Origin: an uncultured Bacilli bacterium
Lineage (GTDB): Bacteria; Bacillota_I; Bacilli_A; RF39; UBA660
DNA: 64,000 nucleotides
Direction of reading: 5' to 3'
Assembly (NCBI GenBank): GCA_944332435.1
Contig: CALVJW010000001.1
Span: forward strand, 16,370 to 80,369
In this document: one piece after another, positions 39,998 through 53,819 of the stretch
Position numbering within the stretch: the first letter of the stretch is position 1
How the letters are laid out: each line of letters begins with the position of its first letter
Made by a program: the position numbers and the translations under genes
Notes under the pieces: generated by a model
The model's database searches: none
Seen by the model: only the letters and a program-made list of their open reading frames with translations
What the model was told of the DNA's origin: nothing

Positions 39998-41226
<1,229 letters not shown>

Positions 41227-41694: not shown

Positions 41695-41768
41695 TGGTGC
41701 CGAATGGTTGAATTGAACAACCCTCTGATGCTTACCATGCATCTGTTTTACCACTAAACTAAATCGGC
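41695..41768 (-). tRNA. tRNA-Thr (anticodon GGT)
   Basis: 74 nt. GCCGATT acceptor, anticodon loop ATGGTAA, T-arm GGTTG-TTCAATT-CAACC, encoded ACCA. One U-U mismatch at 6:67. Confidence 0.82.
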
Positions 41769-50159: not shown

Positions 50160-50381
50160 ATGTTAAATCAAACGATTATTGTAGGTAGAATGGTTCGGGA
50201 ACCAGAACTTAGGGAAACAGAGAATGGGAAAAAAGTTACTAATATTACGCTTGCCGTACCACGTAGTTTTAAAAACCAAGAAGGAGAGTATGAAACGGAT
50301 TTTATTCATTGTACATTATGGCAAGGAATTGCCGAAAATACCGTGCAATATGTTCAGAAAGGTGATTTACTTGGTCATTAG
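50160..50381 (+). pseudogene. ssb: Single-stranded DNA-binding protein, 5' half only
   Basis: GAAAGGAGA RBS. MLNQTIIVGRMVREPELRETENGKKV...HCTLWQGIAENTVQYVQKGDLLG, then H and a stop. The last OB-fold strands are missing. Confidence 0.7.
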
Positions 50382-50505
50382 TTTTGTAGATACAATTTTT
50401 TTCTGAAAACTTGATTTAATTCAATAAAACTTGAATTTTTTTTGTATTTTACAATTTTACTATTTGTAAAAAATGTTATAATATTTATTAGGTGGTGTGG
50501 TAGGT

Positions 50506-50781
50506 ATGAAGCATGTTAATTTGATAAGAATTAGAAAAAACAAAGAATACACTTGTGAAAATATGGCGAAGATGTTGGGAATAAGTACTAGCTATTATTC
50601 ACAAATTGAAAATGGAAATAGAAAGTTAGACTATAAAATGGCTGTAAAGATTGCATCAATATTTAAATTATATCCTGACGATATTTTTTATAGATATTAT
50701 GAAAGATATAAAGTAATTCCTAACCATCCTAAAAAAATTAAGGTGATAAGTTATTTTAATTTTGAGGAGGAGAATTTATGA
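50506..50781 (+). CDS. XRE/Cro-type HTH regulator
   Basis: MAKMLGISTSYYSQIENGNRKL. Extended -10 TGTTATAAT at 50474-50482. Confidence 0.8.
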   Translation: MKHVNLIRIRKNKEYTCENMAKMLGISTSYYSQIENGNRKLDYKMAVKIASIFKLYPDDIFYRYYERYKVIPNHPKKIKVISYFNFEEENL

Positions 50782-51314
50782 TTAGAAATTTTGTAGATGA
50801 TATCAAAAGAGCTAAAGATAATAAAGCATATTTATCAGCATTGGCATTAGCGTTAACAATACCTGATATATGTGGAAAAATAGAATATTACAAAACTAGC
50901 AACATGAATAATAGAGATAAATATATAGCATGGTTTGATAAATGGATTTATAAATATGTAGAAATACCTAAGTCGAAATTTGAAAATTTTCATGATTATG
51001 ATGAAATGGTAAAATTTGATGGAGAGGTTTGCTATGCATTAAGAAATGAATTGTTACATCAAGGAAATACAATAGATGGTTATAATTCAAATGGAATAAA
51101 ATTTGATCGATTTGAATTATGTGTGTCAGATAGTGAATGGCAATTTGGAGATGGACATGGATGTCAATTATCGGATGGAGAAATAATAGAAACGCACAGG
51201 ATATTTAATGTTGTTAATCTTTTAGAATGCTTTATATCAAGTACAGAAGATTATATCGATCAAAATGGAGATAACTCTGATTCCTTAGGGATTATAAAAA
51301 TTCAAAAAATATGA
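50778..51314 (+). CDS. Hypothetical protein with a HEPN-like RNxxxH motif
   Basis: ATGA overlap with the XRE gene. ALRNELLHQGN fits Rx4-6H. Fold not verified. Confidence 0.45.
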   Translation: MIRNFVDDIKRAKDNKAYLSALALALTIPDICGKIEYYKTSNMNNRDKYIAWFDKWIYKYVEIPKSKFENFHDYDEMVKFDGEVCYALRNELLHQGNTIDGYNSNGIKFDRFELCVSDSEWQFGDGHGCQLSDGEIIETHRIFNVVNLLECFISSTEDYIDQNGDNSDSLGIIKIQKI

Positions 51315-51340
51315 TATAATTAATTTAATAAATAGTAACT

Positions 51341-51688
51341 TTGCAAGTAAATGGATGTGATTGTATGAAAGATAATAATAAATCAAAATATATGCCTACT
51401 GAAGAAGAATTAGAACAACAAAGAAAAGAAATGTTATTTGAAATGAATAAACTTAATAATGAATTTAGAAAAGAAAAAAAGAAGAAAATTATTATTATAT
51501 CGAGTGTAGTAATTATTGCTTTTGTGTTATTTAAAATCTTTGTTGGCGAAATAAATATAACCATTCCAAACCTTGCTTCACAACACAGAAATAGACAATA
51601 TGATGTTAGTGTAAATAATACATTGATAGATGTAGGTGTAGAAGAAACCAAAAAAAACAACAATTATTCCTTTTGTAATGTATATTAG
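51341..51688 (+). CDS. TM-anchor fragment (upstream half of a frameshifted gene)
   Basis: KKKK-IIIISSVVIIAFVLFKIFVG anchor. The frame ends just after the A8 run 51650-51657. Confidence 0.4.
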   Translation: MQVNGCDCMKDNNKSKYMPTEEELEQQRKEMLFEMNKLNNEFRKEKKKKIIIISSVVIIAFVLFKIFVGEINITIPNLASQHRNRQYDVSVNNTLIDVGVEETKKNNNYSFCNVY

Positions 51689-52040
51689 TGATTTTAGTAG
51701 TCATATGTTTTTTGGTGATATAGATGAAAAAAGCATGAAGTATGAAAAAGGAACTTCAGTTATTTTGAATGTTGATTCGTATGAATGCTATACCAAGAAT
51801 GATAATATACAATTGTCTTGTGTAGGTGGTACAGATCGTTATAAAAAATTAAAGACAGATGATACAACTTATACTTTAAGAATTAAAAGACTTAATAGAG
51901 AAGAAACAATTACTTACAACGGTAAATTTATAAACGATATAAGTGATTATCTTGTTGAAAAAGGAAAATATAGAGTGTTTATTGTTGGTAAGTATAAGAA
52001 TGTAACAAGCACATTATATTTTAACTTGGAAATAATTTAG
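51678..52040 (+). CDS. Domain fragment paralogous to 18699..19268 (downstream half of a frameshifted gene)
   Basis: Shares RYKK, L-x-IKR-x-N, EKGKY and FNL with the 18699 ORF. Its frame is open from 51642. Confidence 0.45.
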   Translation: MYISDFSSHMFFGDIDEKSMKYEKGTSVILNVDSYECYTKNDNIQLSCVGGTDRYKKLKTDDTTYTLRIKRLNREETITYNGKFINDISDYLVEKGKYRVFIVGKYKNVTSTLYFNLEII

Positions 52041-52074
52041 TTAGTAGAAACCTTTATAATATAAGGTTTTTTAT

Positions 52075-52218
52075 TTGTATCACCAAAAACCATTAATCGG
52101 AATCAAAGGTCGTATTCAAACAAGAGATGTAGAGTTAGAAGATGAAACTCATAAAAAATATGTAGAAGTCATAGCAGAAAAAGTTACGTTTTTATCTAGT
52201 AAGAAAGCAGATGAATAG
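52075..52218 (+). pseudogene. ssb: ssb 3' half, copy A
   Basis: LYHQKPLIGIKGRIQTRDVELEDETHKKYVEVIAEKVTFLSSKKADE*. No start or RBS. Confidence 0.65.
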
Positions 52219-52228
52219 TCTGCTTTTT
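52207..52228 (+). terminator. Rho-independent terminator
   Basis: GCAGA-tgaatag-TCTGC followed by T5. Confidence 0.65.
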
Positions 52229-52255
52229 ATGGTATAATTATATTTAGGTGGTTAT

Positions 52256-52891
52256 ATGAATTATGAAATATTAGTAAATAAAGAAAATCCAATTGAGGTT
52301 GAATATTTAAATCAAGTTATAATTCCAAATTTAGAAGAAGTACAATTTTTTAGAGATAATGATGATATATTTGAAGACTTTAAAATTACTGATAAAAAAA
52401 TTTTTCTTGAAAAACAAACTAAGATTGCATTTTATGAACTTAGAAAATTTTTAAATAAACAAGGAATTTTGTTTGATATTTGTTCTGGATATTTATCGCT
52501 TGAAAATCAAAAAAACAAATATAATTCTTTTCTTGAACGTAATGGAGAAGCATTAACAAAAAATAGAATACCTATGCCGGGATGTAGTGAACATCACACT
52601 GGTTTAGCTATTGATTGTGATTTTTATAAAGACGGTGATTGGGCTGGTATTTGTCCATTAGAAGATGGAACTGAAAATGAGGAAACAAAATATATTCATA
52701 GTATTTTATCCGACTTTGGTTTTGTTTTAAGATTCCCTAAAAATAAGACTAATATAACAGGAATGCAGTATGAACCTTGGCATATTAGATATGTAGGTAA
52801 AGAGTTGGCAAAAAAATTAGAAAGTGAAAATAAAACATTAGAAGAGTATTATATAGAATTTGGTTATATTAAAGGTCAAATAAAAAAATAA
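52256..52891 (+). CDS. M15-family D-Ala-D-Ala carboxypeptidase (VanY-like)
   Basis: SEHHTGLAIDC and EPWHIRYVG zinc-ligand motifs. Confidence 0.85.
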   Translation: MNYEILVNKENPIEVEYLNQVIIPNLEEVQFFRDNDDIFEDFKITDKKIFLEKQTKIAFYELRKFLNKQGILFDICSGYLSLENQKNKYNSFLERNGEALTKNRIPMPGCSEHHTGLAIDCDFYKDGDWAGICPLEDGTENEETKYIHSILSDFGFVLRFPKNKTNITGMQYEPWHIRYVGKELAKKLESENKTLEEYYIEFGYIKGQIKK

Positions 52892-52892
52892 T

Positions 52893-53051
52893 TTGTATCA
52901 CCAAAAGCCATTAATCGGGATTAAAGGAAGATTACAAACAAGACAAATTTCATTAGATGATGAAACAACTCGTAATTCAGTAGAAGTTGTTGCCGAACGT
53001 GTAACGTTTTTATCTAGTAATAAAAAAATAGACGAAGATAGAAAAAAATAG
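52893..53051 (+). pseudogene. ssb: ssb 3' half, copy B
   Basis: LYHQKPLIGIKGRLQTRQISLDDETTRNSVEVVAERVTFLSSNKKIDEDRKK*. Starts 1 nt after the vanY-like stop. Confidence 0.65.
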
Positions 53052-53072
53052 AACAAATTTGTTCTATTTTTT
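53042..53072. terminator. Bidirectional terminator
   Basis: A7-TAGAAC-aaattt-GTTCTA-T6, between convergent units. Confidence 0.65.
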
Positions 53073-53321
53073 CTTGCTTTCTTTTTTCTTGTTACTATTT
53101 GTTCCTTTTTTTAAGAATTCTTTACGATCTTTTAATTCGTCGTAAAAAATATCATCTGGTTTTAAATCAAATACTTTAGCAATTTGAATTGCTAATTCAT
53201 AAGTAACACGACGTTGATTATTTTCTAATTGCCAATAAAATGGCTTACTAATTCCTACTAGTTCGGCCATTTCTCTAAAATTATATCCATTTTCAATTCT
53301 TAATTGTTTTAATTTTTCCAT
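53064..53321 (-). CDS. XRE-family HTH regulator (CI/Cro-like)
   Basis: MAELVGISKPFYWQLENNQRRV. About 45% identical to the 50506 XRE by eye. Confidence 0.85.
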   Translation of the reverse strand: MEKLKQLRIENGYNFREMAELVGISKPFYWQLENNQRRVTYELAIQIAKVFDLKPDDIFYDELKDRKEFLKKGTNSNKKKESKKK

Positions 53322-53462: not shown

Positions 53463-53819
53463 ATGTTTTTAGGAGAAAGGCTAAAGAAACTCAGATTAGA
53501 AAAAGGTTTATCTCAACAAGAGTTAGGAGATCTAATTGGAGTATCAAAAGTATCGATTAGTGAATATGAAAATGGAAATCGAATTCCATTATTAAATAAC
53601 TTTAATGAGTTATTAGATGTATTCCACGTAACAGCTGATTATTTCTTAGGTAGAGATATGATAGCGGTAAGTGAAGAAGAAGAACCATATACTTATCGTA
53701 TTGCAAAAGAAGATATCGATATTCTAAAAGCATTGAAAAATGAAAAGTCTTTATATTTAAAACTATATCGTGATCCAATAAGAACCGTAGAATTAATTCA
53801 AAGAAAATTAAATAAATAG
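53463..53819 (+). CDS. XRE-family HTH regulator
   Basis: LGERLKKLRLEKGLSQQELGDLIGVSKVSISEYENGNR. Divergent from 53064..53321. Confidence 0.85.
   Translation: MFLGERLKKLRLEKGLSQQELGDLIGVSKVSISEYENGNRIPLLNNFNELLDVFHVTADYFLGRDMIAVSEEEEPYTYRIAKEDIDILKALKNEKSLYLKLYRDPIRTVELIQRKLNK

Follow-up and report, generated by a model that had tools for sequence, protein, structure and literature searches.

The 64,000-nucleotide stretch analysed here (the window; contig CALVJW010000001.1 of an uncultured Bacilli bacterium, positions 16,370 to 80,369) carries an ssb gene in three pieces: a single 5′ half (50160–50381) and, further downstream in the same orientation, two 3′ ends, hereafter copy A (open reading frame (ORF) 52075–52218) and copy B (ORF 52893–53051). 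This arrangement had been described, with its coordinates and sequences, in a first-pass annotation made from the letters of the window alone, and it was confirmed by re-reading the sequence and by profile searches. The 5′ half covers positions 1–72 of the 104 positions of the Pfam SSB profile (E = 1.9e-20). Both 3′ pieces match positions 71–104 of the same profile (E = 2e-3 for copy A, E = 3.5e-4 for copy B) and are thus SSB-derived, as had been proposed; the two scores lie below the gathering score, which is expected for pieces of only 34 residues. The two 3′ regions form a direct repeat of 134 nucleotides with 75% identity and a spacing of 818 bp. At their beginning stands a 36-nucleotide block with just these two occurrences (52074 and 52892) in the 64 kb, where chance would give 0 matches. 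The features of the locus are collected in Table 1.

Table 1. Features of the split ssb locus (window coordinates) and attachment-site sequences. A slash marks the junction; LSR, large serine recombinase; L and P numbers denote the contigs and proteins discussed in the text.
Feature	Position	Strand	Remarks
ssb 5′ half	50160–50381	+	Codons 1–72 native (B side of attL), then His and stop, both supplied by the element
Crossover dinucleotide GG at attL	50373–50374	+	Junction alignment with the empty site in L001–L010; same GG in three LSR phage lineages
Unit 1 (E1)	50375–52100	+	1.7 kb, bounded by P′ and P arms
P′ arm, left end of unit 1	50375–50400	+	TCATTAGTTTTGTAGATACAAT; imperfect inverted copy of the P arm
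XRE-family regulator of unit 1	50506–50781	+	Pfam HTH_19 and HTH_3; PHROG repressor families
178-residue cargo protein	50778–51314	+	Invariant R-x4-H motif; phrog_18591 (E = 1e-17), a family without assigned function
Membrane-protein gene	51365–52040	+	Frameshifted at about 51640–51690; 224 residues, intact in L012
Conserved right-end segment of E1-type elements	52030–52074	+	Terminator-like hairpin at 52050–52069; aligned in the window, L022, L023, L030 and L016
P arm 1 (attR of unit 1)	52075–52100	+	TTGTATCACCAAAAACCATTAATCGG; arm architecture as in the attP beside the L026 LSR gene
Unit 2	52101–52918	+	Copy A, tail hairpin, extended -10-like motif, M15 peptidase gene, P arm 2
Copy A, foreign "A-type" ssb 3′ end	52102–52218	+	Tail hairpin reaching ~52228
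M15/VanY-type peptidase, cargo of unit 2	52256–52891	+	PF02557 (E = 4e-27); NCBIfam VanXY/LdcB-like below cut-off
P arm 2 (attR)	52893–52918	+	TTGTATCACCAAAAGCCATTAATCGG
Copy B, native ssb 3′ end displaced by insertion	52920–53051	+	Completes P0001; adjoins the native XRE pair directly, like the 3′ end of the empty site
XRE gene, native ssb neighbour	53064–53321	-	Divergent pair with the next
XRE gene, native ssb neighbour	53463–53819	+	Divergent pair with the preceding
attB in relatives			CTACTTGG/AATCAAAGGAAGA (short form CTACTTGG/AATCAAAGG); junction alignment
Window left junction (attL)			TTACTTGG/TCATTAGTTTTGTAGATACAA (short form TTACTTGG/TCATTAG); junction alignment
Junction before copy A			CCATTAATCGG/AATCAAAGGTCGT; junction alignment
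Junction before copy B			CCATTAATCGG/GATTAAAGGAAGA; junction alignment
attR, short form			..TTAATCGG/AATCAAAGG; junction alignment
LSR P0206, 74% identical to L026 LSR			Integrated in L042: ..GGTGATATTGTTGG/GATTAAGTCCATTTGGTGATACAA, equal to the L026 P′ arm; free attP: see L026
LSR P0209, 63% identical to L026 LSR			Integrated in L043–L046 (~38-kb prophage): ..GATATGATCGG/GAACAAGTTCATTTGTGGTAAC; free attP in L047: GTTACCACAAAAGGATTTAATTGG/GAACAAGTTCATTTGTGGTAAC
LSR P0214, 59% identical to L026 LSR			Integrated in L055, L056, L059 and L061 (~33-kb phage): ..GGTGATATTGTCGG/GAATAAGTCC..; free attP in L054: AGTATACCAAATGGAATTAATAGG/GAATAAGTCCAAAAGGTATACT

A search with the ORF of copy A returned 84 short proteins and not a single full-length SSB. 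The start of 59 of these 84 proteins resembles (L/M)YHQKPLIG, and it is fused to 24 different ssb 3′ bodies. The first 26–27 nucleotides of the block are thus a conserved foreign end, fused at a constant position to numerous ssb alleles, and do not represent codons of ssb. The residues YHQKPLIG, previously taken for about nine ssb codons that overlap the end of the 5′ half, are thus encoded by element DNA, and their likeness to the 5′ half is a resemblance between attP and attB half-sites. DNA scans located the same 26 nucleotides beside ssb 3′ ends in L021, L023, L027, L028, and L030, beside a non-ssb gene in L022 and, in L026, inside an imperfect palindrome of ~50 bp lying 6 bp after the stop codon of an LSR gene. 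The product of this gene (P0205, 486 residues) has the domains Resolvase (PF00239), Recombinase (PF07508), and Zn_ribbon_recom (PF13408), and a fragment of a CI-like S24 repressor precedes it. The arms of the L026 palindrome, TTGTATCACCATTTGGACTTAATCC/CAATTAATGGTAAATGGTGATACAA, match at 19 of 24 positions, a value equalled by 1 of 2000 shuffles, and its P arm (TTGTATCACCATTTACCATTAATTGG) differs at 1–2 of 26 nucleotides from the arms beside the ssb 3′ fragments in L028 and L016. We conclude that the 26 nucleotides which precede the ssb 3′ pieces represent the P arm of a phage attP site, and that the block together with the 3′ end constitutes an attR. The P-arm scans of genomes and metagenomes gave only 5 and 7 loci, and the viral scan (IMG/VR) yielded no exact match to the arm. 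The matches in L024, a Bacteroidales contig, and in L025, L029, and L031 were read as due to chance; the latter three have a higher GC content and no ssb 3′ reading frame after the arm.

The empty site was searched for using the ssb 5′ half joined to copy B as query. The protein found, P0001, is an intact SSB of 115 residues, 97% identical over its full length to this composite, and is encoded on ten contigs (L001–L010). All of them share the gene order of the window, namely sufB, a gene for a 98-residue lipoprotein, ssb, XRE (-), XRE (+), pdp, rpoZ, and ftsK; an uninterrupted ssb in relatives, as foreseen from the window, is therefore found in identical synteny. The intact gene of these syntenic relatives is made up of the 5′ half and copy B, which identifies copy B as the native 3′ end and the ~2.5 kb between the two as inserted. 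Alignment of the junctions places the insertion point within the Gly codon that precedes (I/V)KGR, at its GG, mid-gene at codon 72. This GG is common to attB (L001), to attL, and to both attR sites of the window, without any longer target duplication, and it gives the proposed serial insertion at one position inside ssb its exact point. The array is not an assembly artefact, because L012, an independent assembly 99.8% identical to the window, has the same one; its copy A carries a 1-nucleotide deletion, which indicates that this copy is drifting. The two divergent XRE genes, whose assignment is supported by Pfam matches, had been regarded as the end of the array; being present at the empty site of relatives as well, they are native. 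The pair is possibly the relic of an older immunity region. A similar XRE pair follows the array in L053, and a gene for a 118-residue XRE protein follows ssb in L050.

P0001 scores 94.8 bits against TIGR00621 (cut-off 53.95), and its scores against the NCBIfam short-SSB models are below their cut-offs. It is short, ends in ..NKKIEEESKK, and has no acidic C-terminal tip; its best PDB match is SsbB of B. subtilis (3VDY, 1.3e-28), with SsbA barely behind (9.5e-26). This short SsbB-like paralog may have a role in competence. An insertion of the IS200/IS605 type 3′ of TTAC was considered for this site and rejected upon inspection of the junctions, as the element ends do not abut TTAC and the relatives have CTAC. 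A group II intron also interrupts the same paralog beside sufB, near codon 50, in L050 (L050:4762-7794, GCA_947581715.1), L051, and L052, where a 53-residue ssb 5′ part, an RVT_1 protein of 621–625 residues, and a 71-residue ssb 3′ part follow each other. This intron explains a second class of short "SSB" ORFs, starting ..SKIYLSLF.C.LW.., whose junction had been a candidate for another integrase site.

LSR phages are integrated at the very same position. In the three lineages listed in Table 1 the arm sequences differ, and the crossover lies in all of them at the same GG of the Gly codon; a palindromic attP beside a gene for a recombinase with the same three domains is present also in L047 and L054. 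The prophage of L043–L046 encodes DnaB_2, RecT or ERF, its own SSB of 151–155 residues, a Cro/CI pair, a Bro-N protein and the LSR, and it abuts an 81-residue truncated ssb beside an amidase gene and sufB. In the free form represented by L054, genes for a holin and a GH25 endolysin are located ~100 nucleotides upstream of the P arm, co-oriented with ssb. Read from these junctions, the short tail-less SsbB-like ssb beside sufB is the attB of LSR temperate phages, and the earlier idea of a cassette-array site devoid of a recombinase has to be replaced accordingly. The best GenBank phage match to the LSRs of this clade is 41% identical and no cultured phage is near; likewise, the 2.9-kb region of the window has no match among GenBank phages. 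An origin of hybrid genes by deletion between the host ssb and a phage-borne ssb is unlikely, since the phage SSB gene lies in the replication module, ~7–9 kb from the LSR/P′ end.

The inserted DNA consists of two units. Unit 1 contains only the XRE, 178-residue, and membrane-protein genes, and neither recombinase nor transfer genes. Its P′ arm matches the reverse complement of the P arm at 17 positions (equalled by 47 of 2000 shuffles), its left end is homologous to that of an element in L022, and comparable P′ arms are found in L026 and L042. The L022 element, also of 1.7 kb, has the same layout, a P arm identical at 26/26 positions, an XRE protein 62% identical to that of unit 1, the same promoter/operator patch and a related left end; it is inserted in an unrelated minus-strand gene, at CCCTTACTTGG/GATGAC, and its reconstructed attP has 16 matches (33 of 2000 shuffles equal). 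Moreover, ~70 nucleotides of the right end of unit 1 recur in L023 and L030 beside two further ssb alleles. In all, E1-type homologs show four distinct right flanks, of which one lies outside ssb, and the recombinase of a helper may mobilise such elements. In view of these homologs in L022, L023, and L030, unit 1 is a member of a non-autonomous family bounded by LSR arms, with conserved ends, an XRE gene, and variable cargo, which occurs also outside ssb. The suggestion that each inserted element brought or left an ssb 3′ end does not apply to unit 1, which is bounded by P′ and P arms instead. A scan for promoters gave 22 promoter-like sites against 31 expected, and in DNA so rich in AT a promoter/terminator scan is uninformative.

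As for the cargo of unit 1, residues L88, R89, and H94 of the 178-residue protein are invariant in 47 homologs. The protein has 1043 homolog clusters and no match in Pfam, NCBIfam, or PADLOC. Its AlphaFold2 model (pLDDT 88.6) has AbiV and HEPN proteins as top Foldseek matches, none of them significant (E ≥ 1.2, TM ~0.35). The label HEPN-like given at first is thus backed by the invariant R-x4-H motif and weak fold matches and by none of the three databases, and is plausible but unproven. The frameshift noticed in the membrane-protein gene is confirmed, the gene being intact in L012; it sits at a run of A (..ACCAAAAAAAACAACAA..), and either a difference between strains or a sequencing error in the homopolymer may account for it.

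Unit 2, on the other hand, does bring a foreign ssb 3′ end, as had been suspected: copy A is 96.3% identical in nucleotides to the 3′ end of the intact ssb of L016, another species, and the sufB genes of the two are only 86% identical. Its second component, the VanY/M15 peptidase, was correctly recognised from the sequence and is possibly a relic endolysin. The location of the peptidase gene beside a P arm is consistent with the relic of a lysis module, because the lysis genes of L054 lie upstream of its P arm in the same way, and we infer that the source of unit 2 was an LSR prophage, at the end which bears the lysis module.

The arrangement is not confined to the window. The order intact ssb, cargo, P arm, and displaced 3′ fragment recurs in L015, L016/17, L021, L027, L048, L049, and L053, a pattern shared by many uncultured gut Bacilli, and supports the hotspot reading. 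L048 has three 3′ copies, the outermost with a degenerate arm and stop codons, and this decay orders the array by age. In these arrays the cargo begins 25–40 nucleotides after the ssb stop codon, with the first gene behind a TGnTATAAT-like motif, and ends 0–30 nucleotides before the P arm; it includes PD-(D/E)xK proteins of the YhcG type (PADLOC candidate defence system PDC-S02, E = 2e-65), Bro-N, and unknown proteins. A DUF1016/YhcG PD-(D/E)xK gene stands directly after the ssb 3′ end at L048:6349-7239, L048:8179-9069, L015:8715-9605, and L053:8669-9973; the two L048 copies are 75% identical to each other, and that of L053 is fused to a dCMP deaminase domain.

The 3′ ends of the arrays are related in a peculiar manner. 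In L016 and L021 nothing distinguishes the gene copy from the displaced one between the GG and ..AGTAAGA (100% identity), beyond which the tails diverge, the gene copy having a KKADE tail and the fragment the native one. L027 is a mosaic, and in L048 the near-identity of the copies extends into the next gene. Several different 5′ halves and bodies of full-length SSBs bear the A-type end or its KKADE tail. Patterns of this kind are the mark of homologous recombination, or of gene conversion of the insertion-duplication type, superimposed on the junction between P arm and GG. A third, partial ssb 3′ remnant (..KKVTFLSSMKA*) is present at L016:11222-11295, ahead of ABC-transporter and cation-efflux genes, and the island of L016 may be longer than the part analysed.

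Taken together, these data lead us to propose, with a probability of roughly three in four, that this ssb is an attB hotspot of LSR phages, that unit 1 is a mini-element and unit 2 an imported 3′ end, and that the ssb paralog of the window has been inactivated. The LSR phages cross over at the GG described above, and units that carry a 3′ end would restore an intact ssb. A restored ssb regenerates attB and therefore an enzyme acting strictly on attP × attB can insert again; each renewed insertion would push the older 3′ ends downstream. For the window two routes may be envisaged. In the first, unit 2 would have entered before unit 1, the latter inserting into the regenerated hybrid gene. In the second, a composite of ~2.5 kb, from P′ to the distal P arm, would have been excised through the distal attR in a donor carrying the A-type end and then integrated here by a single attP × attB event. 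We slightly prefer the one-step route, because the boundary between native and foreign DNA then falls exactly at the GG by canonical chemistry. The 3′ repeats may further have been reshuffled by homologous recombination or gene conversion, and homologous recombination is implicated in the formation of the units bearing a 3′ end. Whatever the route, the net result is an inactivated ssb paralog that carries XRE, Rx4H, membrane, and peptidase cargo.

Several points weigh against this proposal. The contigs with the empty site are only 87–88% identical to the window in DNA, and hence represent a related species, not a sister strain. A tblastn search with the L026 LSR found no cognate enzyme in the 64 kb, but only a decayed homolog at 40312–41217. 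The P′ arm of unit 1 is the weaker partner of the palindrome, with a 3-nucleotide gap and a shuffle frequency of ~0.02, and no close homolog of the VanY-type protein was found in the phages of IMG/VR. Finally, canonical LSR chemistry, in which attP recombines with attB only, does not by itself yield the order intact ssb, cargo, P arm, 3′ end, and we infer the origin of units of the unit 2 type.

The tight framing of the cargo between the ssb stop codon and the P arm, which is found in every array, would also be expected if the units were integron-like cassettes, that is, circles composed of ssb 3′ end, promoter, cargo, and P arm, inserted at the GG by a phage LSR in a non-canonical reaction between an attR-like site and attB, each of them repairing ssb and re-arming the site. 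The same model accommodates the native/foreign junction of the window, which falls within 11 nucleotides (GGAATCAAAGG), and the order of the arrays, in which older copies are more decayed. However, none of the arrays has a recombinase gene beside ssb, the neighbours being sufB and the lipoprotein gene upstream and XRE or pdp downstream, and no attC-like folding is seen (z-scores between -0.95 and +0.89 for both junctions on both strands). In addition, the 3′ bodies of L016 and L021, which are 100% identical and differ in the tail alone, fit a homologous insertion-duplication and not the entry of a foreign 3′ end at the GG, and PMC3783163 describes LSRs as enzymes that pair attP with attB and no other sites. 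We consider such cassettes unlikely; if they existed, the ssb locus would be an LSR-driven, integron-like collector of defence and other cargo in uncultured gut Bacilli.

The ~2.5 kb could otherwise be what internal deletions have left of one LSR prophage, the second 3′ end being incidental. LSR prophages do occupy the ssb site, and in L054 lysis genes lie ~100 nucleotides upstream of the P arm. Nevertheless, one integration leaves one attL and one attR, whereas the window has two P arms with a foreign ssb 3′ end between them, and unit 1 recurs elsewhere as a discrete 1.7-kb element with both ends; a single scar is thus improbable. The first-pass reading of the locus as a hotspot similar to a cassette array, and not a simple prophage scar, survives as regards serial insertion at a hotspot and falls as regards an autonomous cassette system, the units being prophage-derived relics and their non-autonomous derivatives. 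Very improbable is a variable islet maintained without any site-specific step, purely by homologous recombination of ssb segments and flanking genes: mosaic 3′ ends and identical copies within a genome do show that such recombination is active, but the same 26-nucleotide arm stands at exactly the same GG of 24 ssb alleles and in one non-ssb gene, and it forms an attP beside LSR genes.

LSR elements inside genes are well known from B. subtilis, where SPbeta lies in spsM and skin in sigK. The Listeria prophage A118 in comK is a further LSR prophage inside a host gene, as described in a review (PMC12378983) and in the paper on its integrase (PMC3556126). The phages of the ssb site resemble such prophages in the Resolvase, Recombinase, and Zn-ribbon domains of the enzyme, in an attP that is an imperfect palindrome of ~50 bp around a 2-bp crossover beside the recombinase gene, and in intragenic insertion without target duplication. 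They differ in having an ssb paralog as target, in their uncultured LSR clade, and in the recombinase-less derivatives and repeated displaced 3′ ends that pile up at the site. Prophages in ssbB have been documented in Streptococcus mitis B6 (phiB6, with a 9-bp core and insertion near the 5′ end of ssbB) and in S. pneumoniae, and were framed as mobile elements targeting competence genes, including a prophage remnant at a competence locus (CIPhR) (PMC2828477; PMC12637031; PMC12378983). In both cases a mobile element disrupts a short SSB, of the competence type there and SsbB-like here; the present case involves an LSR (the integrase class is not stated for phiB6), a GG dinucleotide, mid-gene codon 72, other hosts, and arrays with restored genes.

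Accretion of elements at one att site is exemplified by ICESt1/ICESt3 and the cis-mobilizable elements (CIMEs) at fda of Streptococcus thermophilus. As in CIMEs, recombinase-less elements bounded by att sites stand here in tandem at one integration site, and composite excision through outer sites is possible; CIMEs, however, rely on tyrosine integrases, for which attL and attR remain targets, whereas an LSR needs a regenerated attB, which seems to be supplied here by imported or duplicated ssb 3′ ends. Integron arrays share with the present ones the ordered small cargo units at one site and the repeated junction element, but neither the window nor any of the arrays has an integrase or attI beside ssb, there is no folded attC-like site, and the repeated element is an attR consisting of the P arm and the 3′ end of the target gene.

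New here are the position of the target, the clade of the LSRs, a whole family of mini-elements devoid of a recombinase, and arrays, found repeatedly, in which 3′ ends are displaced and genes restored. A conserved mid-gene attB in an SsbB-like gene is used by at least three LSR phage lineages of largely uncultured low-GC gut Bacillota, and the corresponding attP/attB pairs are candidates for new serine-integrase tools. With this site, the notion that genes of the transformation type are targets of mobile elements gains a case outside the streptococci; the site also gathers mini-elements and attR relics with candidate defence or toxin cargo (the Rx4H protein, YhcG of PDC-S02, and Bro-N). That the target gene is restored again and again suggests a route by which a strictly attP × attB recombinase may generate tandem arrays. 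In terms of annotation, the P arm explains dozens of orphan "hypothetical proteins" of 46–60 residues that start with (L/M)YHQKPLIG.

Other serine recombinases are present in the window and in one of the genomes with an array. The statement that no recombinase is left in the window holds for the cognate LSR, which is absent; an unrelated, decayed one is nevertheless found at 40312–41220 (-), where a 129-residue Resolvase ORF and its continuation detected by tblastn are 25% identical to the L026 LSR. A tRNA gene (41698–41768, -) adjoins it, the ORFs around it between 34 and 42 kb have no Pfam match, and this region is probably another degraded island. In L015, a metagenome-assembled genome of a Bacilli member from goat colon, an LSR of 621 residues, also 25% identical to that of L026, is encoded together with a Mob_Pre relaxase 3.6 kb upstream of ssb (L015:1664-4754, -). 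With only 25–30% identity to the L026 LSR, both the resolvase fragment of the window and the L015 LSR were rejected as the cognate enzyme, and the L015 LSR and relaxase probably belong to an unrelated integrative mobilisable element.

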